Shown here: in pieces, positions 2,253 through 31,385 of the stretch
How positions within the stretch are numbered: the stretch's first letter is position 1
Layout of the letters: each line of letters starts with the position of its first letter
NCBI GenBank assembly: GCA_963666515.2
Contig: OY762897.2
Span: forward strand, 1,600,001-1,664,000
Origin: Candidatus Binatia bacterium
GTDB taxonomy: Bacteria; Desulfobacterota; Binatia; UBA9968; JAJDTQ01
DNA length: 64,000 nucleotides
Direction: 5' to 3'
Made by a program: the position numbers and the translations under genes
Notes under the pieces: generated by a model
Database searches by the model: none
Seen by the model: the letters and a program-made list of their open reading frames with translations, nothing else
What the model was told of the DNA's origin: nothing

Positions 2253-3425
2253 ATGGCCAAGACATTTCAGCAACTGATGGACGAGGCGCGCGGCACCGTC
2301 AAGGAGTTGTCGCCTCAGCAGGTGCACGAGCTGCTGCAGAACAACGGCAAGCACGCGCTCCTGGACGTGCGGGAGAAAGAGGAATACCGGGAGGGACACC
2401 TGGACGGCGCGGTATCGGTGCCGCGCGGCTTCCTCGAAATGAAGATGGACGCCGAGGTGCCCGACAAGTCGACCCCCATCATCGCCTACTGCGCCGGCGG
2501 CGTGAGGTCGCTGCTGGCCGGCAAGGTGATGCAGGAGATGGGCTACACGGACGTGATCTCCATGTCCGGCGGATACACGGCCTGGAAGAACGAGGGCTAC
2601 TCGTTCGTGCAGGACCGGCAGTTCACGCAGGAGCAGCTCACCCGCTACAGCCGCCACTTCCTGCTGCCTGAGGTGGGAGAAGAGGGCCAAGCCAAGCTCC
2701 TGGACGCCAGGGTGCTGATGGTGGGGGCCGGCGGCCTGGGTTCACCCTCCGCCTACTACTTGGCCGCGGCCGGCGTCGGCACCATGGGCATCGTCGATCA
2801 CGACGTGGTGGACCTGTCCAACCTGCAGCGTCAGATCCTCCACACCAACGACCGCATCGGCGAGCCCAAGACCGAGTCGGCGCGGCAGACCCTGCAGGGA
2901 CTGAACCCCGACGTCAACGTGATCCCCATTCCGGAGCGGCTGACCTCCGAGAACATCATGGAGATCATCAAGGACTACGACATCGTGGTGGACGGCTGCG
3001 ACAACTTCGCCACCCGCTACCTGGTGAACGATGCCTGCGTGATGACCGGAAAGCCCAACGTCCACGGGAGCATCTTCCAGTTCGAGGGACAGGTGTCGGT
3101 GTTCCACCCGGGCAACGGCCCCTGCTACCGCTGCCTCTACCCCGAGCCGCCTCCTCCCGGCATGGCGCCGAGCTGCGCCGAGGCCGGCGTGCTGGGAGTC
3201 CTGCCCGGACTCATCGGCACGATCCAGGCAGTGGAGACCATCAAGCTCATCCTCGGCAAGGGCGACTCGCTGGCCGGACGGCTGCTCCACTTCAACACGC
3301 TGACCATGGAAATCAACACGCTCCGCCTCCGCCAGGACCCCGAGTGCCCCATGTGCGGCGAGAAGCCCACCATCCACGAACTGATCGACTACGAGGAGTT
3401 CTGCAACCTCCAGGGAGCGGCCTGA
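2253..3425 (+). CDS. moeB: MoeB/ThiF-family adenylyltransferase with N-terminal rhodanese domain
   Basis: Rhodanese LDVRE...YCAGGVRS; RYSRH, GAGGLG, SNLQRQ, PCYRC, CPMC. Confidence 0.92.
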   Translation: MAKTFQQLMDEARGTVKELSPQQVHELLQNNGKHALLDVREKEEYREGHLDGAVSVPRGFLEMKMDAEVPDKSTPIIAYCAGGVRSLLAGKVMQEMGYTDVISMSGGYTAWKNEGYSFVQDRQFTQEQLTRYSRHFLLPEVGEEGQAKLLDARVLMVGAGGLGSPSAYYLAAAGVGTMGIVDHDVVDLSNLQRQILHTNDRIGEPKTESARQTLQGLNPDVNVIPIPERLTSENIMEIIKDYDIVVDGCDNFATRYLVNDACVMTGKPNVHGSIFQFEGQVSVFHPGNGPCYRCLYPEPPPPGMAPSCAEAGVLGVLPGLIGTIQAVETIKLILGKGDSLAGRLLHFNTLTMEINTLRLRQDPECPMCGEKPTIHELIDYEEFCNLQGAA

Positions 3426-20791: not shown

Positions 20792-20868
20792 GGCGGTGTA
20801 GCTCAGTTGGTCAGAGCACGCGGCTCATATCCGCGGCGTCGCTGGTTCAAGTCCAGCCACCGCCACCA
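20792..20868 (+). tRNA. tRNA-Met (CAT), elongator type
   Basis: GGCGGTGTAGCTCAG...CGCGG-CTCATAT-CCGCG...GGTTCAAGTCC...CACCGCCACCA; G1-C72 paired, so not initiator; Ile2 not fully excluded. Confidence 0.92.
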
Positions 20869-20902: not shown

Positions 20903-22663
20903 TCACGACGTCTTGCGAGACGCCGGGGCGTCCACGTGAACCGTGACGATGTCGGTGTCGTGATACTGCTGGTGATGGACCCTGGAGGCCAGGTGACGGA
21001 GCAGCCGGAGCGAGAGCTCCCGCTCTTCCGGCGCATCGACGGGACCGTTTCCGAGCAGCGCGATGCTGTCCTGGATGTTCTCCGTGCCGGCGCCGGCGAC
21101 GAACTCCAGCACGGCTCCGCCGCCTTCCTTGCGGGCGGTCAGCCGCAGCCGGCGCGGTTCCCGTCCCTCGCCCTGCTCGTCCTCGCGCATGAGCGTCAGC
21201 AGCGTCTCCTCGCCGGCGGCATCGAGACGGTCGGCCATGGCCTTGTCCCAGCCGCCGCGTGAAGCGAAGGCGGCGAGGAATTCGCGGATCTTCGGCAGCG
21301 CTTCCAGCCCGAACTCCACCTCCATGCGGCTCGGCCGGGGCGCGGTCAGTTCCACGAACGCGGTCATGAGGATGGCCACCAGCCCGCCGGCGGTCATGCC
21401 GTTCTGCAGCAGCCCGCCGGCCAGTTCGCCGAAGTATTCCGGGAAGATGACCCCGTTCTGGAAGCCGACCCCGGCCCAGAAAGACACGCCCACCACCAGC
21501 CCGGTGCGGTAGTCCAGCTCATCGTGGACCACCACCTTCATGCCGACCACGAACAGCATGGCCAGCAGCACGGTGGCGTAGGCCGCGACCACCGGCGCCG
21601 GGACCGCCAGAACGACCGCAAGCACCTTGGGCAGAAACGCCATGCCGACGAAGATCAACCCGATGGCGATGCCGACGTTGCGGGACGCGACGCCGGTCAG
21701 CTCGGTCACCGAGATGCTCGTCGAGTAGGTCGTGTTCGGCACCGTCCCGGCGAGGCCGGACAGCAGATTGCCCACGCCGTCCGCGCCCACCGCGCCCTGC
21801 ACCGCGCGGAAATCCACCGCACGGGTTGCGCGCCAGGAGACGCGCTGGATCGCCACGGCGTCGCCGATGGTCTCGATGGCGCCCACCAGGGTCACGAACA
21901 CGAACGCCGGCAGCAGCGCCCAGAAGACCCCTCCGAAGCTCAGGTCCAGGCCCGGCCACGTGCCGTCCGGAAGCCCCACCCAGGACGCCTTGGCGACCAT
22001 GCCCACGTCGTAGATGCCGAACGACGCCGCCACCACGGAGCCCACCACGACGCCGATGACCGGCGCCCACAGCCGCAGCGATCCGCTGGCCTTGAGGGCG
22101 ATGCAGGTGATCACCAGCACGGTGACCAGCGCGCTCAGCGGCGCCGCCAAGGCCGGGGAACCCTTCGGCACGTCGTCCAGCATGCCGAAGATGATGGGCA
22201 TCACCGTCACCGGGATCAGCATGATGACGGTTCCCGCCACCGCCGGCGTCAGTATCCGCCGCATCAGCGAAAGCCGGGACGAGAGGAGGAACTGGAAGAA
22301 CGACGAAACCAGCACCAGGGTGGCGAGCATCGCGGGGCCGCCCTTGACCAGGGCCGTGACGCAGACCGCGATGAACGCTCCCGAGGTGCCCATGAGCAGC
22401 ACGTGCCCGGCGCCGAAGCGGCCGACCCGGACCGCCTGCAGCACGGTGGTCACGCCGCTGATGGCAACCGCGGCGAACACCGCCCAGGAAAGGAACGCTT
22501 CGCTGCCGCCCGCGGCCCGGATCACGATGGCCGGAGTCAGCACGATCCCGGCGATGCAGAGAATGGCGAGTTGGAGGCCCAGCCCGAAGGCCAGCGCCAG
22601 CGGCGGCTGCTCGTCGGGCTGGTAGCGGATGCTCGTGCGATGGCCGGAGTCGTCGGTTGGCAT
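20903..22663 (-). CDS. NCS2 (xanthine/uracil) permease with C-terminal degenerate HATPase/anti-sigma-like domain
   Basis: LGLQ, MGTSGAF, IETIGD, ADGVGN, PNTTYS NCS2 motifs, plus ~140-aa soluble C-terminal extension. Confidence 0.85.
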   Translation of the reverse strand: MPTDDSGHRTSIRYQPDEQPPLALAFGLGLQLAILCIAGIVLTPAIVIRAAGGSEAFLSWAVFAAVAISGVTTVLQAVRVGRFGAGHVLLMGTSGAFIAVCVTALVKGGPAMLATLVLVSSFFQFLLSSRLSLMRRILTPAVAGTVIMLIPVTVMPIIFGMLDDVPKGSPALAAPLSALVTVLVITCIALKASGSLRLWAPVIGVVVGSVVAASFGIYDVGMVAKASWVGLPDGTWPGLDLSFGGVFWALLPAFVFVTLVGAIETIGDAVAIQRVSWRATRAVDFRAVQGAVGADGVGNLLSGLAGTVPNTTYSTSISVTELTGVASRNVGIAIGLIFVGMAFLPKVLAVVLAVPAPVVAAYATVLLAMLFVVGMKVVVHDELDYRTGLVVGVSFWAGVGFQNGVIFPEYFGELAGGLLQNGMTAGGLVAILMTAFVELTAPRPSRMEVEFGLEALPKIREFLAAFASRGGWDKAMADRLDAAGEETLLTLMREDEQGEGREPRRLRLTARKEGGGAVLEFVAGAGTENIQDSIALLGNGPVDAPEERELSLRLLRHLASRVHHQQYHDTDIVTVHVDAPASRKTS

Positions 22664-22860
22664 GATGTGACCCCGTGGGACGCGAACCTGCGACGGCGTG
22701 CTGTCCAGGATCATTGTCGGCACAGACAAAGAAAATATATCAGACCATTTTAGGGCGGCCAATACCACGCTGGACTTAATCTCTGCCGTCTTCCTGTCTG
22801 ACAAACCAGGACCATCTCAGTCTGGACACCAACTTGAGTATTTGCCCCAGTACGGTATGA

Positions 22861-23110
22861 TGAACTGGTCCCGGAAAATCGGACAGGTTGCTAAGGAGTA
22901 TTCCACCGACCGAAGGAGGAATACGCGATGAGCACACGACGGCGATTCAGCGGGGAGTTCAAGGGCAAGGTGACCCTGGATGCGTCGCGCGGGGACAAGA
23001 CGATCCGGGAAACGGCCACACGCCACAAGGTGCATCTGAAGCAGGTAAGACGCTGGGGACGGCCGGCGGTGGACGGCATGCAGGACGTCTTCTTCAACGG
23101 GCGGAACCGG
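22861..23110 (+). mobile_element. IS3-family left-end remnant with truncated orfA
   Basis: IR-like TGAACTGGTCCCGGAAAATCGGACA; orfA from 22928 MSTRRRFSGEFKGKV (HTH_Tnp_1-like) breaks off at about 23110. Confidence 0.75.
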
Positions 23111-23460
23111 CTCGTGAGAACATTTCATCGAACACCTTCGGTACCCCTTCAAGTACAAGGCCGTCTACCTTCTACTAATTCTCCGACAGCTTCGAGGGAG
23201 ATTCTGCCTTGACAGCCTCCACCCCGACCGGGGTTTTACGAAAAGGGAATGCTTCTGCTAACGCAGGCCAAGCGCAGCAGCTCGCTTTCCCCTCCCTCGG
23301 CTCAACCGGAACAGCAAGACATGTTAAACAGGAGCTTGGCGGCATGGCCCTACATTCGGAATACACGTCATCTCTGCAGCCCAACCGTCCAACAAATTGG
23401 GATCAACTCAATCCTACTGGCGTCGTGCATTGGAGTTGACCCGATTAGGTGGACACCTAA

Positions 23461-24511
23461 CCCAAGTTTAACAGAGGTAGTTGAGAGTCGTTATAATTCA
23501 TGGGGTTAGCGGGGCAATTTTGGTCTTCTGGCACTACATTCTGGTGTTTTTGACGATAATTCCAAGAGTTCAGACGGTCAACTTTTTGATACCGCCGGGT
23601 GCGGGATTGAGCCCGAGAGCGTTGTAGATTTGGAGTTGCTGGGGCTCGGCCCGGGTGGCCTTACGGACATGCAGGGTGCGGCCGTCCTTGCGGCGGAAGG
23701 TGGCGGTGACCCGGTGCTGGCCTTGGAGGATGCAGCGCAAGGTGGTCCAACTGGCGGTCTCGCCCAAGGCCGCGAGGCGGCGGCGGATGATCTGCACGAG
23801 TTGGTACGCGATGACGGTGATGAACAAATGGCCGTCGGAGCGGTGCTGCTTTTGGTGGAAGATGGGGCGCAGGCCGAGTTCGGACTTGAGGGAGCGGAAC
23901 ACGGCTTCGAGATCGGTGATCATGGTGTAAGTGCGCCAGAGGGTTTGCGGGTCCCAGTCGCCGAGGTTGGTGCGCAGACAGTAGACGCCGGGATGAGTGA
24001 GCATGGTGCCCGGGCGGGGCTGGCGCTCCCAGGTGACGGCCGCGGCCTTGCCGCCTTGGGGGTCGGCCACCACCTCGACCCGGTAATGCTGCGCGGCCCC
24101 TCGGCTTTGTTCCTGGATGCGCCCGATGCGCTGCCAGACATGGTCGAGGGCCTTGCGGGGGCGGGAGAGCCCCTCATGGAGTTTTTGCAAGGCGCCTTCG
24201 AAGCGTGCGGCAAAGCGTTTGGAGATGCCTTCCTCCTTCTTGGCGCGAGCTTCGGAGTAGCAGTACAATCGCACCTCGTCGTGGTCCTCGTCAACGACCC
24301 GGTGCAGGTGAACCTTGTGGTGAGAGCGGGTCTCGATGGCAGTGGCCAGTTCGGGATCGAAAAGCCGGGTGCGTTGGCGGCTGACCACCAGATAGCGGTA
24401 GCCCTGGTCCCGCAGCCAGGCGATGTTGTTCTCGGTGGCAATGCCTGCATCCATCACCACCACAGCATCGGCGGGCGTCTGGAGGGCTTCAAGCATGGAC
24501 GCCAGGGTCTT
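23461..24511 (-). mobile_element. IS1634-family 3' fragment (truncated transposase 23570..~24511)
   Basis: VVMDAGIATENN, GVYCLRTN, LEAVFRSLKSELGLRPIFHQ; end-like sequence CCCAAGTT at 23461; N-terminal half missing. Confidence 0.82.
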
Positions 24512-24934
24512 TAAGGGTCTTCGTGAGGACGGATTGACGACGGCGGAGCGCGAGGAGTTGCGTCGGCTTCGGCGGGACAATCGCCAGCTCCGCGAAAAGC
24601 GGAAGATCCTAAAAAAGCCGCGGCTTGGTTCGCCCGGGAGACTGGGACAGTACCGGGGAGGTTTTCGAGTTCGTGAAGGCGAATCAGGCCGAACATCGGG
24701 TGGCCACGATGTGCCGGGTGCTGGGCGTCTCCCTCAGCGGGTACTACGCGTGGCTGGGGCGCGGGCGGTCGCGTCGTGCCAAGCGCGACGAGGAGTTGCG
24801 CGGGGCGATCCGAAAGATCCACAAGGCTTCCCGAGGCACCTACGGGGTTCCTCGGGTGCAGGCGGAGTTGGCCGCTGCCGGCTCGGCTGTGAGCCGCAAG
24901 CGGGTGGCGCGTCTGATGCGCGAGGGCACATGGA

Positions 24935-25030
24935 GAGCCGATGCGGTGAGAGTCGCACGTCCGGTTCGGAGGGCGGGCCGGAGAAACCCATCGCTCGAAA
25001 GACGACAGGGCGCTCCGGTCCGACCCCTAC
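24935..25030 (+). mobile_element. Group II intron 3' remnant (domains V-VI)
   Basis: GAGCCGATGCGGTGAGAGTCGCACGTCCGGTTC (DV), then GGAGGGCGGGCCGG...CCGGTCCGACCCCTAC (DVI, AC end), directly followed by IS3 orfB codons TYVPTW. Confidence 0.88.
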
Positions 25031-25734
25031 ACGTACGTGCCGACCTGGACGGGATTCGTGTACTTGGCTATAGTGCTGGATGTGTTCAGCCGCAAGGTCG
25101 TGGGGCGGTCCATGACTCATCATCTTCGTACCGAACTGGTGCTCGCAGCGCTCAACATGGCCGTCGGCCAGCGCCGTCCCACGGAGGTGGTCCATCATTC
25201 CGACAAGGGCTCCCAGTACACGTCGCTGGCCTTCGGCAAGGGCTGCCGCCAGATGGGAGTGCTGACCTCCGCCGGGTCGGCCGGGGATTGCTACGGCAAC
25301 GCCATGGCCGAGAGCTTCTTCGCCACCCTGGAGTGCGAGCTGAGCGAGCGGCAGGCGTTCCAAACCCAGGCCGAGGCACGCATGGCCGTCTTCCAGTTCA
25401 TCGAGGGCTGGTACAACACCCGACGCCGGCACTCTGCCCTACGCTACCTGAGCCCCAACGACTTTGAGCGCGCCGTTGAGGCGGCTGGGGCGCATCCTGA
25501 TGGCAACACTGGCCCGAACCAGGAGACCGACCCTGTCGTCTTCCTGATCCCCGAGCCGGATGTCCATGACCGCCCTCGGGGGCTCAATCCCTCGGTAATG
25601 GGGAAGGCTATGTTTCCAACGGCTGTCGCGCACCGCGGTGCCGGTGCATACAGCCCCCAACTATCCACGGGGTAACTCCACATTGACTCTTTTCACACTA
25701 AATTCTGACGACCACCGTAAAAGGATCTAGTACC

Positions 25735-28638
25735 ATGACCAGAGGCACACGTAGGATCAAAGACTCCCTTCGGTCTTGCTCTCAGAACCAGAAATTGGCC
25801 AAGCAAGCGTTTGCAAAAAAGGATCTTGACGAATACCACAAGCACGCTCAGCTCTTGATACACGATCTGCATACTGCTTTCAATTTCACAATGGAAGTGA
25901 TCTTAAACCATTTTCTACCGGCCGAACAGTTTGGCAGTAAAGGTTTTGAGGAGCGATTGAATCGGTTAAAGGAAGCCGTTATATCCCCCCTCGACGACGA
26001 AATAGACCGAGCAATTGCTGAGATAAAACTGCTACGTGACAAGGGGGACCATAGTTTAAACTCTCCCGGGTATATCTTGACGCCCGACGCCTTGGACCAC
26101 CATTTGAAATACATCCAAGAGTGGATCAATACCGAACTAGAGAATGTAAAAAAAAGGCCAATTGACCTGGGGTATTGTGATTTTCTGGTAGATACGCAAA
26201 AAGCACAAGCTATGCTGCTTCTAAAGTCTGTAAAGGTCGGAGAGGACCGAAAAGGTGCCGTGATCCTCGTTCACGGGGAAGGTGGAACCGGGAAATCAAG
26301 ACTTGCGGGTACAATACTTGATTTGGCACACCGTACTGGCTGGGATACTTTTGAGTATCATTGTACACCCCCAGGTGCCGTACTCAAATCGTTTGTCGAC
26401 ACAATTACCGCTGACCTTTCGAAGAGCAATGGATATAGGGGTTCCGCAACAATCAAACTCCCGGCTGAATCTCAGCGGGTCGCACGAGTCGGCGATACCA
26501 GTAGTGACGATTATACAGCTCCAGTCAGAAACCGGGCCATGTCATTTTCCCAGGCCCTATACGGCCGCTTCGAGAAGACCCGAACAGGAGGATCAGCAAA
26601 ACCGATCCTGATTTCTATAGACAACATGCAATGGTTGACGGAGACCGAGACCGACGAGATTTCCATTCTTATCAGAGATTACCGTAAAGGCCCTGTTGTG
26701 TTGATGGGTGTTTTCGGAGGTGACGTCGAAAAAGCCTCATCACCGAACCTTAGCCGTTTGATGAGCCTCGTGGAGAGGGGACGCCTCGTGAAACTTCGCC
26801 TTGAGAACATTCCCAAGGAAAAGATCAAAGACGCGATCAGATTAATGTTCTGGGACAAGCCATCTGACTTTCCTGAATGGTTCCATGAACTCTTATACGA
26901 CGCAACTAACGGCAATATCTTTTTTCTCCGTGAACTATTAAAAGGGATGACGTACGTCGGTGACACTAGAAAAAGTACGCCAATTCTCGTAAACAACATA
27001 ACGGATGACGAGGATGACCAAAGTGGCAAATGGGTTATCACAAAATCGAAAGAAGACTTGGAAATCCCGAGACGGGTCAAATCGGTTGTGACGGAAATAC
27101 TGCGTAGGCTCGATAAGGAATCGACTGGTGTTGCCGAGTGCGCGGCGGTGGCAGGAGGTCTGACCAATTTTCCTCAGGTACTGGTTGAGCGACTGGTGGA
27201 ACGTGTGGACAGTCAACCGCAAAAAACCATAGAGGATGCCCTCATAAGGTTGGCACGGGAAGGGATAATCGTTTTTCAGCAACAACATCATGATGTAGCC
27301 ATTAGGTTTTTGCACGAACTTACTAAGGACCAAATATATTCAAATATCGACACGGAACGAAAAAAGGAACTTCACTCGGCGACGGCAGCTATTATGGCGA
27401 ACGATCCTAATCTCCGTGTCCTCGGAGAGGATTACCACGAAACTATCGCAAACCACTTCTTCCAAGCCGAAATGCACTTGGATGCTGCCCGTCATTACCA
27501 CATTGCGGCGAACGAGTCAGTCCAAAACTGCTTGTTTAGAAATGCGACAAGACAACTCGAACAATCAATCGCGGCGATGAAAAGGATCCAAAAATTCCAT
27601 TCTTCTGAAGAAGAGCTTGACGTCCAAATTGCCTATTCAGATGCCTTGAGGCAGTGCGGCGACTTTGGAAAAGCAATTGAAGTCCTGGAGTCGATTTACC
27701 CGATTAGCGACGACTCAATACGCGCCCGTGGTAGGATCCTCAACATGCTGGGAGACTTGTACTGCTTGAATGGCTCAAGGGAGCTTGCTTTACAAGCCTA
27801 CAATGAGTGCCACAAGTTAGCTGAAGCCGAGAATCTTTCAGAACTTCTATTGGAAGTCACATCAGACCTCTGCGAGTTTTACGATCGTGAAGCAGAACGG
27901 TACTCAGGCAACCCAAACAAAGTGAAGGAGTTGATTGAAAAGGGTGATCAGTTTTTGATCCAACAGGTAAGTTTGGCGAATAAAAGCAACGACGACTCTG
28001 CGAAGGCCCGGGCGGCACGTAACCAAGCGAAACAGATGCGACGACGTGGCGAATTTGAACAGGCAATTGGCATCTACAAAAGGGCTTTGAGTTTTTATTC
28101 CTCTCAACCTAACGACCATTCCGTCCTTATTCCCTATGCAAAAACACTTTTTCTTTCCTATAAGTCCGCCACTCGTCTTGGCGGAGCGCCGGCACTGCCA
28201 GCCCGACTCGCGGCCAAAACGAGGAGACAAGAGGCGTACAATATTGTCGCCGATTTGCTCAAACGCGGAAAAAAAACAGGAGCCAAAAGAACACGGGCAA
28301 TCGCGCGGCAGTATAGAGGGTTGTTTCGTATGGGAGACGAGAACAGTAAAGCCAAGAAAGACCTAAAGGCAGCATTGAAGGTTTTTAAGGAGATCAAATT
28401 TGCTCGTGGTCTTACTGAAACATATATAGCGTTAGGAGAATGGTACCTCGAGAAGGGTAAGAAAAAGAAGGCAATCGAAATGTTTTCCTCAGGCCTGGAG
28501 ATTAAGGGCGACATCCGTCATCTTGCACTGCGCGCGGCCGACACTCTTGACGTGATGACCGAGACTGATCGAGCGGAAAGGCTCCGCGAATTGGTCGGCG
28601 GGAAGCGCCAGAGATGGCCGGAAGCCAGACGCACCTAA
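25735..28638 (+). CDS. STAND-like AAA ATPase with N-terminal HEPN-like domain and C-terminal TPRs
   Basis: RDKGDH (Rx4H) in the N-terminal helical domain; Walker A GEGGTGKS; Walker B ISIDNMQW; TNGNIFFLRE; RFLHEL; TPR-like helices; visibly AT-richer than flanks. Confidence 0.75.
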   Translation: MTRGTRRIKDSLRSCSQNQKLAKQAFAKKDLDEYHKHAQLLIHDLHTAFNFTMEVILNHFLPAEQFGSKGFEERLNRLKEAVISPLDDEIDRAIAEIKLLRDKGDHSLNSPGYILTPDALDHHLKYIQEWINTELENVKKRPIDLGYCDFLVDTQKAQAMLLLKSVKVGEDRKGAVILVHGEGGTGKSRLAGTILDLAHRTGWDTFEYHCTPPGAVLKSFVDTITADLSKSNGYRGSATIKLPAESQRVARVGDTSSDDYTAPVRNRAMSFSQALYGRFEKTRTGGSAKPILISIDNMQWLTETETDEISILIRDYRKGPVVLMGVFGGDVEKASSPNLSRLMSLVERGRLVKLRLENIPKEKIKDAIRLMFWDKPSDFPEWFHELLYDATNGNIFFLRELLKGMTYVGDTRKSTPILVNNITDDEDDQSGKWVITKSKEDLEIPRRVKSVVTEILRRLDKESTGVAECAAVAGGLTNFPQVLVERLVERVDSQPQKTIEDALIRLAREGIIVFQQQHHDVAIRFLHELTKDQIYSNIDTERKKELHSATAAIMANDPNLRVLGEDYHETIANHFFQAEMHLDAARHYHIAANESVQNCLFRNATRQLEQSIAAMKRIQKFHSSEEELDVQIAYSDALRQCGDFGKAIEVLESIYPISDDSIRARGRILNMLGDLYCLNGSRELALQAYNECHKLAEAENLSELLLEVTSDLCEFYDREAERYSGNPNKVKELIEKGDQFLIQQVSLANKSNDDSAKARAARNQAKQMRRRGEFEQAIGIYKRALSFYSSQPNDHSVLIPYAKTLFLSYKSATRLGGAPALPARLAAKTRRQEAYNIVADLLKRGKKTGAKRTRAIARQYRGLFRMGDENSKAKKDLKAALKVFKEIKFARGLTETYIALGEWYLEKGKKKKAIEMFSSGLEIKGDIRHLALRAADTLDVMTETDRAERLRELVGGKRQRWPEARRT

Positions 28639-28666
28639 TAAGTCGCGGGGCATTACCTCGGCGTTT

Positions 28667-28689
28667 TGGAACTGCCCCGGAAAACTCGG
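28667..28689 (+). mobile_element. Isolated IS3-like terminal sequence
   Basis: TGGAACTGCCCCGGAAAACTCGG resembles the IS end at 22861; lies at the right edge of the AT-rich island. Confidence 0.45.
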
Positions 28690-28791
28690 CAACGTCACGG
28701 AACTGGTGACCGCGAGGCGGTATTATACAGCCCATGGCCGTTTGTGATGCAGTATCTTGATTAAGACGACAGGGACCCGGAGGGGTTTTCC

Positions 28792-29970
28792 ATGATAGAT
28801 AAGGCGCGTCTCCGAGAGTGCGTGGTGAAATTGGTGCAGATCGACAGCCTGTCCCGCAAGGAGCGGGCCATCGCTCTGCACCTCACCGAGGCACTCAAGG
28901 GGTTGGGCGGTGTCGTCTACATGGACAACGCGGGAACCGCAGTCGGCGGCGAGGTGGGGAATCTCGTCGCTCACTTCGACGGCAACGTGGACGGTGCCGA
29001 GCCCATACTGCTGTCGGCGCACATGGACACGGTGGCCCCGGGCGAGGGTGTCGTCCCCGTGGTGGACGGCGACGTGATACGGAGCGACGGCAGCACAGTG
29101 CTTGGAGGCGATGACAAGAGCGGTATCGCCATCATCCTGGAAGTGCTGCAAGCCCTGCACGAGGAGGAGTTGCCCCACGGGCACATCGACGTAGTCTTCA
29201 CCATTTGCGAGGAGGTCGGCCTCCTAGGCGCGAAACACCTAGACCTGGGACTTGTGCGGGCGAAGACCGGTCTCGTGCTCGATAGTGACTCCATCGGCTT
29301 CCTCATCACGAAGGCACCCGCAGTCAATCACCTTGAATTCGAAGTCTACGGTCTGGAGGCCCACGCCGGGATATGCCCGGAACGGGGCATCAACGCGATT
29401 CAGGTGGCCGCCAACGGCGTGGCCGCCATGTCGTTGGGGCGCATCGACGAGGACACCACTGCTAACCTAGGCTTGGTGAGCGGTGGCACAGCCGTAAACA
29501 TCGTGCCGAACCGGGTGGCGCTCACCGGGGAAGTACGTAGCCACGACGAGGACAAGCTCGAACGGCAGACGCAGGCGATGGTAGCGTGCATGGAGGAAGC
29601 CGCCGCCGGCGCCAACATGGAACTGGACGGTCACCGCCACGAAGCACGCGTGGAATGCCGGGTCCGGCGGGAATACGACCGCATGGACCTGTCCCACGAC
29701 ACCGCCATCGTCCGGCAGGTCCACGAAGCCGCGCACAACCTGGGTTTCACCGTCGACACCGTGGCCAAGGGCGGCGGCTGCGACGCCAACGTGTTCAACA
29801 GGCGAGGTCTCCAGGTCGCCAACCTGGCCAGCGGCATGCGGGACATCCACACGGTGCATGAATGGCTCGATGTCAACGACCTCGTGAGCGCGGCCCGCAT
29901 CATCCACGAGGTCCTCCGGCTGGAGGGTTGCGGTCAAACATGCTCGGACGTGAGCTTGAAACGCTCCTGA
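28792..29970 (+). CDS. M20B peptidase T-like metallohydrolase
   Basis: SAHMDTV, LGGDDKSG, CEEVGL, AHAG, GGGCDAN, IHT. Confidence 0.9.
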   Translation: MIDKARLRECVVKLVQIDSLSRKERAIALHLTEALKGLGGVVYMDNAGTAVGGEVGNLVAHFDGNVDGAEPILLSAHMDTVAPGEGVVPVVDGDVIRSDGSTVLGGDDKSGIAIILEVLQALHEEELPHGHIDVVFTICEEVGLLGAKHLDLGLVRAKTGLVLDSDSIGFLITKAPAVNHLEFEVYGLEAHAGICPERGINAIQVAANGVAAMSLGRIDEDTTANLGLVSGGTAVNIVPNRVALTGEVRSHDEDKLERQTQAMVACMEEAAAGANMELDGHRHEARVECRVRREYDRMDLSHDTAIVRQVHEAAHNLGFTVDTVAKGGGCDANVFNRRGLQVANLASGMRDIHTVHEWLDVNDLVSAARIIHEVLRLEGCGQTCSDVSLKRS

Positions 29971-31385
29971 AGGAAGAGCGGGGTCAGTTCTTCGAGTTCG
30001 TCAGCGCCTACGAGCAGAAGAAGCGCGGAACTCAGACCAAACGGCCCCAGGACCTCGCCCGCGAAATCGCGCGCATCCTCAACGGCATGGTCAACGCCGA
30101 CGGCGGCGTGCTCCTGGTGGGGGTCGAGCCCGACAAGAGCCTCACCGGCCTCCCCTATGCCGAACAGGAGATACGGGAGCTTTGCGAAGTGCCCCTGAAC
30201 CTCCTCAATCCCCCGCTCCCGTCCCTGCACGAACGCATCGACCTCGGCAACCTGCTGCTGCTCCGATTCGAGGTGAGCCCCGGCCTGGAGATCCGCCGCG
30301 TGGCCAGCGGCAGGACGTTCTACCGCATCGCCTCGGAAAACCCCGCGGTGGCACCCGAGCAGATCCGGCTCCTCAAGGACGCCAAGCTGTCGTATTCCTA
30401 CGAACGGCAGCACATCCACGACGCGAGCTGGGACGATCTGGACGCCGCCGCCATGGAGTCCTTCGCCGAACGCATGGATGCGCAGACGGACCCCCGGTCG
30501 CTGCTGTCGCGCACCTATCATCTCGTCCGCGGCTCCGCGGACCGGCCCGAGATCTCCATGGCCGCCCTGCTGCTCTTCGCCAGGGAGCCCACGAGATGGC
30601 ATCCGCGTTGCGGCATCGACTTCGTGAAGTACGAGGGCACCGAAAGACGCTATGGAGCGTCCCTGAACGTGGTCAAGCGGGTACGCATCGACCGTCCCCT
30701 GTGGATGCTGGTCGATGAGGCCGTGGGACGGATCAAGGAGCATATCCGCGAGCGCATGGTCAGGCACGACCTGTTCTTCCGGGAGCGGCTGGAATACCCC
30801 TCTTTTGCCTGGCAGGAGGCCCTGGTCAACGCCGTCGGGCACCGCGACTACGCCATCACCGGCGCGGAGATCGAGTTCTGGATGTTCGACGACCGCCTGG
30901 AAGTGAGAAGTCCGGGCGTGTTGCCGCCTCCTGTCGCGCTGGACCACCTCAACCGGCAACAGCGGGTGCACTTCTCGCGCAATCCGCTGCTGGTCCGGGT
31001 GTTGTCGGACCTGGGCTACATGCGCGAGATCGGCGAGGGCGTGCCGCGCATGTTCCAGGAGATGGAGCACAATGCGCTCCGGCCGCCCGAGTTCTCCACC
31101 GAGGGCTTCCTTTTCACCGTGACGCTGCGGAACACCCCCATCTACGACGACGAGACCCTGCGGTGGCTCAACCACTTCGACCGCTCCCGCCTGAGCCCGC
31201 GCCAGCAGCGTTTGCTGGTGTATGCGCTGTCGCACGACAAGCTGCTTTCCAGCGCCGACTACCAGCGCGTTGCCGCGGTCGACCGCGACACCGCCTACCG
31301 CGATATCCGCGGCCTAGTGAACATGGGCATCCTCGCCCCGGTCAAGCCCAAGAGCCGGACCTACAAGATCGTGGAGCCCATATGA
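29940..31385 (+). CDS. AlbA_2/Schlafen + HATPase_c_4 + wHTH protein
   Basis: GQFFEF, NADGGVLLVGV, EALVNAVGHRDY, SPG, SRNPLL, GEGV, C-terminal TAYRDI. Confidence 0.85.
   Translation: MLGRELETLLKEERGQFFEFVSAYEQKKRGTQTKRPQDLAREIARILNGMVNADGGVLLVGVEPDKSLTGLPYAEQEIRELCEVPLNLLNPPLPSLHERIDLGNLLLLRFEVSPGLEIRRVASGRTFYRIASENPAVAPEQIRLLKDAKLSYSYERQHIHDASWDDLDAAAMESFAERMDAQTDPRSLLSRTYHLVRGSADRPEISMAALLLFAREPTRWHPRCGIDFVKYEGTERRYGASLNVVKRVRIDRPLWMLVDEAVGRIKEHIRERMVRHDLFFRERLEYPSFAWQEALVNAVGHRDYAITGAEIEFWMFDDRLEVRSPGVLPPPVALDHLNRQQRVHFSRNPLLVRVLSDLGYMREIGEGVPRMFQEMEHNALRPPEFSTEGFLFTVTLRNTPIYDDETLRWLNHFDRSRLSPRQQRLLVYALSHDKLLSSADYQRVAAVDRDTAYRDIRGLVNMGILAPVKPKSRTYKIVEPI

Follow-up and report, generated by a model that had tools for sequence, protein, structure and literature searches.

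Proteins in which a STAND nucleoside triphosphatase (NTPase) core is followed by an array of tetratricopeptide repeats (TPR) are known from signaling as well as from defense. The signaling STANDs with an AAA_16 core comprise MalT, the LuxR-type 'LAL' proteins, the cyclase-STAND-TPR proteins, the PknK-like proteins and TIGR03903. The Avs defense proteins, such as Avs3 (8dgc) and KpAvs8, are encoded by single genes and display a head, a STAND core and a TPR-like sensor. A further layout, listed in 2013 for Npun_F6454, MED222_16016 and Desac_1927 (PMC3710099, Table 1 and section 16), joins an N-terminal HEPN domain to a STAND ATPase and TPR (plus S1/cold-shock). We have analyzed a STAND-TPR gene located in a 64,000-nucleotide (nt) stretch of DNA from Candidatus Binatia bacterium (contig OY762897.2, positions 1,600,001 to 1,664,000), which we call the window. 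Judged from sequence comparisons, what is new in its product, P0001, is an intact P-loop alongside five replaced conserved ATPase positions, together with an orphan head. We tentatively propose that this foreign gene encodes a self-contained, NLR-like switch.

The AAA_16-TPR signaling STANDs are the only relatives of P0001 that can be detected by sequence. They share with it the AAA_16 core, the P-loop GExGxGKSRL, the Trp of the xDxxW motif, the GN-FF-E motif, the winged helix and the TPR. However, P0001 is only 16-24% identical to them, it has no cyclase, kinase or helix-turn-helix (HTH) domain, and its head has no counterpart in these proteins. The closest structure is that of a PH0952-type STAND-TPR protein (6mfv), in which the NTPase core also precedes the TPR; the identity is 14% and the TM-scores are low (0.29/0.40), and the overall arrangement either differs or has been mis-modeled. 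With the HEPN-STAND-TPR proteins, as they are described in PMC3710099, P0001 has in common the three-part layout and an R-polar-x3-H motif at the end of helix 3, but no sequence or profile match links it to any HEPN family. A HEPN-STAND-TPR protein would not be a new design, since the layout appears in the 2013 table. The Avs proteins are the closest functional analogues, with the same succession of head, core and TPR-like sensor in a single gene, and KpAvs8 is presented in a figure legend of PMC13581612 as a defense STAND with degenerate Walker motifs. In contrast to the Avs proteins, P0001 matches no Avs model of PADLOC, its head is not a recognized nuclease, protease, SIR2 or TIR domain, and it has no defense-gene neighborhood. 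Altogether, P0001 has the STAND fold and the P-loop, departs from its clade at five motif positions and matches no Avs, PADLOC or HEPN family profile.

The original prediction had announced an intact open reading frame (ORF) of 967 codons, and this is indeed present on the forward strand. In the first 165 codons, which encode the head, the frame contains no stop, against 2-15 in the other five frames, and it stayed open in just 1 of 20000 base shuffles. Along the ORF the other frames accumulate 2-26 stops per segment, in a DNA with a G+C content (GC) of 47%. Because the head frame is free of stops, the other frames are rich in them and shuffled sequences are practically never open, the whole ORF, head included, is coding. 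A Shine-Dalgarno-like AAAGGA lies 9-14 nt 5' of the ATG. The gene had also been described as visibly AT-richer than its host, which proved correct: GC is 0.47 at positions 26001-28000 and 0.58-0.71 in the rest of the window (about 65% for the window), and GC at third codon positions is 0.51, compared with 0.81-0.90 in four flanking host genes. The low-GC stretch (about 25680-28600) is coextensive with the STAND ORF, and the low-GC cargo of the insertion described below consists of this ORF and very little else.

The 4.67-Mb genome contains one copy of the gene, and of 60 related genomes (27 of the same genus) none was found to contain its DNA, the one match being to 40 nt of the downstream spacer. 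The M20 peptidase gene on its right side is present in 55 of these 60 genomes. We compared the region upstream of this peptidase in eight genomes of the same genus. In none of the eight did tblastn detect, upstream of M20, the STAND protein or any of the insertion sequence (IS) proteins. In five of them, an intact permease gene is directly divergent to M20, with 223-483 nt between the matched parts versus about 6.1 kb here. For the ends of the insertion only outer limits could be set, the intergenic DNA of the relatives being too divergent. The STAND gene is therefore foreign and horizontally acquired, and it lies in an insertion of about 6 kb that is specific to this genome. As to the IS debris said to flank the gene, it occupies only the upstream side; on the downstream side the gene is followed by the M20 peptidase gene, which is native. 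Inverted repeats were sought for the IS3 pieces, but no matching ones turned up.

The overall architecture is well supported. Pfam AAA_16 (PF13191) matches residues 171-322 (E 1.6e-12, 48.7 bits for a cut-off of 32.6) and TPR families (TPR_12, TPR_14, TPR_2 and others) cover residues 614-954, with a best E of 3.1e-14. The full-length AlphaFold2 (AF2) model, computed from an alignment of 47 relatives, has a mean predicted local distance difference test score (pLDDT) of 76, with 80-96 in the ATPase core, 82-98 in the TPR array and 44-71 in the head. When this model was submitted to Foldseek, the top match in the PDB was the STAND-TPR protein 6mfv (E 3e-13, 767 aligned columns), followed by SAMD9, Apaf-1, Avs3 (8dgc, E 1.2e-7), CED-4, MalT (8bob) and the plant NRC2. 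With a profile match above the curated threshold and a fold made of nucleotide-binding, helical and winged-helix domains, P0001 is a STAND NTPase of the AAA_16/MalT type fused to TPR. Pfam, AF2 and Foldseek thus uphold the succession of helical head, MalT/AAA_16-type core and TPR that had been proposed. The head had further been suggested to replace the usual LuxR, cyclase or kinase output, and no LuxR HTH, cyclase or kinase domain was detected in P0001 by Pfam at E<=1.

P0001 is nearly an orphan. A full-length search of 5.8 billion clustered proteins returned the protein itself and only 47 weak matches, the best of which reached 64 bits with 24% identity over 64% coverage. These 47 relatives are all AAA_16 proteins, with 16-20% alignment identity to P0001. 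No chain of the PDB sequences matched at E<0.27, no phage record matched in tblastn, and scans of metagenomes, genomes and viral contigs for close relatives of the whole protein found none. The head is even more isolated. With residues 1-165, phmmer against 1.84 billion representatives retrieved only the query at E<=0.001, the ESM Atlas gave no usable match, and the only match among PDB sequences was apolipoprotein A-I (E 0.25). The head has thus no relative that sequence comparison can detect. A match to DUF5932 (PF19355; E 0.004) was taken as chance, with 17 bits for a cut-off of 23.7; this family matched none of 201 genomes of the host phylum, was found only in the Bacteroides thetaiotaomicron control, and is not mentioned in the literature searched. 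With several hundred thousand STAND representatives on record (PMC13581612, section 5), P0001 is one more orphan among them.

We then considered the ATPase core, using the columns of an alignment of P0001 with all 47 search matches. All the motifs quoted in the original prediction are present, namely IHDLHTAF (residues 42-49), LRDKGDH (100-106), GEGGTGKS (181-188), ISIDNMQW (293-300) and TNGNIFFLRE (391-400). In Walker A, P0001 keeps G181, G184, G186 and K187, which are invariant in the 47 relatives, as well as S188 (46/47), and ten invariant columns are retained in total. On the other hand, P0001 carries replacements at five positions where 44-47 of the 47 relatives agree. They are the Arg of the hhGR motif that precedes the P-loop, the Walker B Asp, the Asp of the HWxD motif, the sensor-1 Arg and the Pro of the GxP motif. 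In the Walker B motif of the relatives, the first position is Glu (41) or Asp (6) and the second is always Asp, and P0001 has D296-N297. The deviation described as DN for DD is thus real, although the consensus of the family is [E/D]D, in which the second Asp never varies. The Ile found in P0001 for the Pro of GxP is also real, but this change falls partly inside the variation of the family, which has Ala in three members. These two deviations made too short a list: D153 and Q155 occupy the hhGR positions (Gly in 43/47 and Arg in 45/47), T302 replaces the HWxD Asp (45/47) and G328 stands at the sensor-1 position. In P-loop NTPases, the acidic residues that follow the Walker B strand, together with the sensor-1 residue, have their roles in Mg2+ and water activation and in sensing of the gamma-phosphate. 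Since the invariant Walker B Asp, the sensor-1 Arg and the hhGR Arg are lost, the core of P0001 can probably bind a nucleotide but hydrolyze it poorly or not at all.

These features lead us to read P0001 as an NLR-like STAND switch that was acquired horizontally, is encoded by a single gene and is intact. If it works as the solved STAND sensors do, binding of a ligand by the TPR array would release autoinhibition. The core would then bind nucleotide and oligomerize and, lacking the residues for hydrolysis, could not be reset, which would make it a one-way switch. Oligomerization would gather the N-terminal heads, and these would deliver the output. In other HEPN enzymes, pairing of two Rx4H sites creates the RNase center. 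If the head of P0001 were of this type, its own paired Rx4H sites would form such a center and the infected cell would stop growing. As a whole, mechanism and setting included, this is the explanation that we prefer, with a confidence that stays somewhat short of even. As for the setting taken separately, the most likely one is a self-contained conflict or anti-phage sensor of the abortive-infection type, for which we see the chances as nearly balanced. Such a role fits because P0001 is encoded by a lone foreign gene and has no host-signaling output domain.

The results that weigh against this reading concern the relatives and neighborhood of the gene, the state of its ATPase and promoter, and the head; we take them up with the alternatives on which they bear. 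According to the precomputed Pfam annotation, 44 of the 47 relatives have signaling outputs and none has a defense effector: 27 carry a class-3 cyclase (three of them also a kinase), 13 a LuxR-type HTH, two a kinase only and two a BTAD/OmpR-type domain, the remaining three having none. PADLOC gave nothing significant for P0001, the best E values being 0.0026-0.027 (HEAT-ARM_XIII, TPR and mad8), and no Avs model appeared. The insertion, which had been described as an AT-rich, IS-littered island, contains no defense gene but only IS fragments and the STAND gene, and its flanks are conserved core genes. Only three of the 51 other ORFs of the window have PADLOC matches at E<=1e-8. These are an E1-like enzyme at a distance of 22 kb, a PDC-S17 match without a qualifying stretch and an AlbA_2/HATPase_c_4 protein. 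The defense role itself thus gained nothing from the PADLOC search, the neighborhood or the nearest relatives.

One could therefore consider that P0001 is a regulatory AAA_16-TPR STAND unrelated to defense, in which the output has been exchanged for a helical protein-interaction head that passes on a signal, be it a small molecule or a protein, to a partner whose gene lies elsewhere. All 47 relatives belong to the MalT/LuxR/cyclase/kinase clade, as just described. The best NCBIfam match is a partial one to the TOMM kinase/cyclase fusion TIGR03903 (49 bits, cut-off 706). A tblastn search of plasmids gave 86 records of cyclase-type STANDs, in which the alignments begin at query residue 148 or later. 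Fold matches of the head include the protein-binding bundles of FAT, p130Cas and catenin. In addition, defense and non-defense STAND clades are interspersed (PMC13581612, section 5), and the STAND-TPR architecture alone cannot decide for or against defense. However, P0001 has itself none of the HTH, cyclase or kinase domains, its identity to the clade is low and the catalytic residues of the clade are missing. Moreover, a lone foreign gene that is absent from 60 relatives would have no co-evolved partner or regulon nearby. On balance we hold this alternative to be unlikely.

The five replaced ATPase positions could also mean that P0001 is a dead protein instead of a one-way switch. According to this view, the gene would be a decaying passenger that arrived on mobile DNA and lost its upstream part to an IS, its ATPase having drifted and its frame being still intact only because the event is recent. 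The degraded IS3 orfB is homologous to another copy in the genome as far as about 25680, a point located 54 nt 5' of the STAND ATG, and the native promoter of the gene is therefore probably gone. When the surroundings of the gene were scanned for promoters and terminators, nothing exceeded the shuffle expectation, and the only promoter-like site in 25400-29000 is on the opposite strand, inside the STAND ORF, with none 5' of the gene. The surrounding IS copies are degraded too.

Public sequencing data bear on the same question. The STAND stretch was found in four runs of one study (three samples), the covering contigs of runs X1-X3 showing no differences, and one run of a second study has two identical 151-nt pieces of it. 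None of these five runs is on record as an RNA run. In the samples of runs X1 and X3, low-depth pieces correspond to parts of the gene with 87-90% identity. Among the records listed, these variants cover 26731-26940, 26813-27020, 27476-28044 and 28512-28665, and none covers the head. Of the nine variant codons given by the ten differences listed, six are non-synonymous and three synonymous, a count that makes no constraint evident and is too small to measure selection, the one record in question having at least 25 differences in all. In one variant, 28665 is followed immediately by 28792, where the M20 gene begins, the 126 nt in between being absent; this points to a diverged allele that a related strain would carry at the same locus. 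If so, the gene has persisted through about 10% divergence, which speaks against a mere remnant, as do the P-loop and the ten invariant columns that are kept and the 967 codons that remain open in a DNA where the other frames are full of stops. We thus judge a dead passenger to be improbable.

The head is the part on which the switch reading is most specific and also most exposed. The single-sequence AF2 model of residues 1-165 (pLDDT 66) is a four-helix bundle, with helices at 2-27, 31-60, 63/68-102 and 117-140, and a fifth helix (145-164) leads into the core. R101-D-K-G-D-H106 fits Rx4-6H with a polar residue (N/D/H) after the Arg. In HEPN domains this motif lies where helix 3 ends and the loop to helix 4 starts (PMC3710099, section 7). 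R101-H106 obeys this position rule, helix 3 ending at 102 and the loop spanning 103-116 in both the single-sequence and the full-length models, with a local pLDDT of 44-66 around the motif and with the caveat that the loop-forming residues belong to the motif itself. In shuffled heads, a motif with its Arg at 97-104 occurred in 7.4% of the cases for Rx4-6H and in 1.4% for R[NDH]x3-5H. This modeled position makes an RNase of the HEPN type, very divergent and activated when dimerization is induced, the leading specific candidate for the head, although we consider it doubtful.

Several of the adverse results mentioned above apply here. Anywhere in the head, 73-78% of shuffles contain an Rx4-6H and 19-22% an R[NDH]x3-5H. 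The signature put forward in the original prediction is thus present in P0001, but 73% of 165-residue shuffles hold one as well; because it is found in most shuffles, Rx4-6H by itself carries no weight and only its structural position gives it some. The 97-104 range was in turn picked after the model had been seen, and the helix bounds come from a single-sequence model with a pLDDT of 44-66. No HEPN Pfam family matched the whole protein at E<=1 or the head alone at E<=10, with the reservation that HEPN families are very divergent and that a profile miss does not exclude the fold. Helix 2 (31-60) contains no Ex3[KR], since E33, D44 and E54 have no Lys or Arg at +4; an acidic residue in helix 2, typically in Ex3[KR], is present in many HEPN families but not in all. 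Foldseek with the head model gave nothing at E<=0.001, and its list is made up of designed bundles as well as FAT domains and apolipoproteins, and HEPN entries come in at ranks 17-45 (E 0.66-1.2). Structure prediction thus gave a helical bundle carrying RDKGDH at the HEPN position, whereas the HEPN effector as such was not borne out, only generic four-helix bundles being retrieved. A homodimer prediction of the head (2 x 145 residues; score 0.02, mark 0.32) has no bearing either way. P0001 is, in this respect, a cautionary case of a short catalytic motif spotted by eye that is expected by chance in most shuffles of the head.

Adaptor heads on STAND proteins and coiled-coil (CC) or four-helix-bundle executioner domains exist, and a conflict STAND with a non-enzymatic head, acting either as an effector-recruiting adaptor (effector-associated or death-like) or as a membrane-perturbing bundle freed on oligomerization, as in plant CC-NLRs and MLKL, would suit a generic bundle whose fifth helix runs into the core and which matches no enzyme family, but it is very unlikely, given that the insertion holds no partner gene of similar composition, that helix 1 is strongly polar and basic and not hydrophobic, and that no CC-NLR, MLKL or HeLo appears among the fold matches listed, which is however not an exclusion.

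Coming back to the NLR-like switch, its most far-reaching version would be an undescribed single-gene immune family. P0001 would then be a hydrolysis-dead, one-shot STAND with a new head effector, either an extremely divergent HEPN or an unprecedented one, invisible to current profiles and without a relative among about 15 billion predicted proteins. We give this version only a small chance. The coordinates of the gene, its motifs and the surrounding features are collected in Table 1.

Table 1. Features of the STAND-TPR gene and of its surroundings, in window coordinates.
Feature	Position	Strand	Remarks
STAND-TPR gene (P0001)	25735..28638	+	From the ORF list; ATG start, 967 residues; helical head, STAND NTPase core, TPR array
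N-terminal head, residues 1-145	25735..26169	+	Predicted four-helix bundle, low pLDDT (44-87), no detectable relatives
RDKGDH (R101-H106), candidate HEPN Rx4H	26035..26052	+	End of predicted helix 3/start of loop
NOD module, about residues 150-540	26182..27354	+	Nucleotide-binding, helical and winged-helix domains; Pfam AAA_16, AF2, Foldseek
Walker A GEGGTGKS, residues 181-188	26275..26298	+	Intact; alignment counts
Walker B strand LISIDN, residues 292-297	26608..26625	+	N297 where the relatives have Asp (47/47); strand 291-296 in AF2
G328, sensor-1 position	26716..26718	+	Arg in 47/47 relatives; strand 321-328 in AF2
GNI, residues 393-395 (GxP position)	26911..26919	+	GNP in relatives (Pro 44/47, Ala 3/47); I395 in P0001
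TPR-like helical repeat array, about residues 560-955	27412..28599	+	Presumed sensor; Pfam TPR, pLDDT 82-98
Genome-specific insertion, outer limits	22764..28768		Comparison with the permease-M20 junction of relatives
IS3-type orfA fragment	22928..23212	+	HTH_Tnp_1, first 52 of 75 profile positions
Truncated DDE_Tnp_1 IS fragment	23457..24580	-	Genome has three other copies, about 90% identical
Degraded IS3-type orfB	24625..25680	+	HTH_21 and rve in different frames
Group II intron domains V/VI (Rfam RF00029)	24933-25030	+	Full model, 48.6 bits (threshold 40), E 2e-7
Permease, xanthine/uracil-type	20903-22804	-	Left flank of insertion
M20 peptidase	28792-29970	+	Right flank of insertion, native gene
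tRNA-Met	20792-20868	+	Between an alcohol-dehydrogenase-like gene and the permease
ThiF/MoeB-like E1 enzyme	2253-3422	+	24 PADLOC E1-E2 models, best E 1e-19, adenylation domain only
AlbA_2 (Schlafen-like) + HATPase_c_4 protein	29862-31385	+	N-terminal part of PADLOC pAgo model, E 1e-21

The surroundings of the gene call for a few remarks. The group II intron match is located precisely where the HTH_21-coding part of the degraded IS3 orfB gives way to the rve-coding part, and it looks like a 5'-truncated intron end lodged in the IS; the segment 24926-25067 has three further copies in the genome, with 86-93% identity. In the same-genus genomes compared, the permease is fragmentary in two of the eight and missing in one, and the permease-M20 intergenic spot is thus unstable in the genus even without the insertion. 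Two candidate marks of the insertion event were rejected. A 25-nt direct repeat at 25632 and 28709 is only 72% identical and was judged a chance occurrence, and the tRNA-Met gene, the only one nearby, is 2 kb from the insertion and not at its edge, so that it does not qualify as an integration site. Among the PADLOC-matching ORFs, the ThiF/MoeB-like E1 enzyme is probably a housekeeping protein. The AlbA_2/HATPase_c_4 protein is 82-89% identical and syntenic in eight out of eight same-genus relatives and belongs therefore to the core and not to an island; its ORF as listed overlaps that of the M20 peptidase by 109 nt, and its true start is probably further downstream.

What P0001 means for STAND proteins depends on its head. 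Should the head be active, P0001 would be a natural STAND that keeps its P-loop and has lost its hydrolysis residues, and it would bear on whether such proteins need ATP turnover or only ATP binding. Should the head be an active effector, it would add an output module that is an orphan in sequence to the NLR-like repertoire of bacteria.

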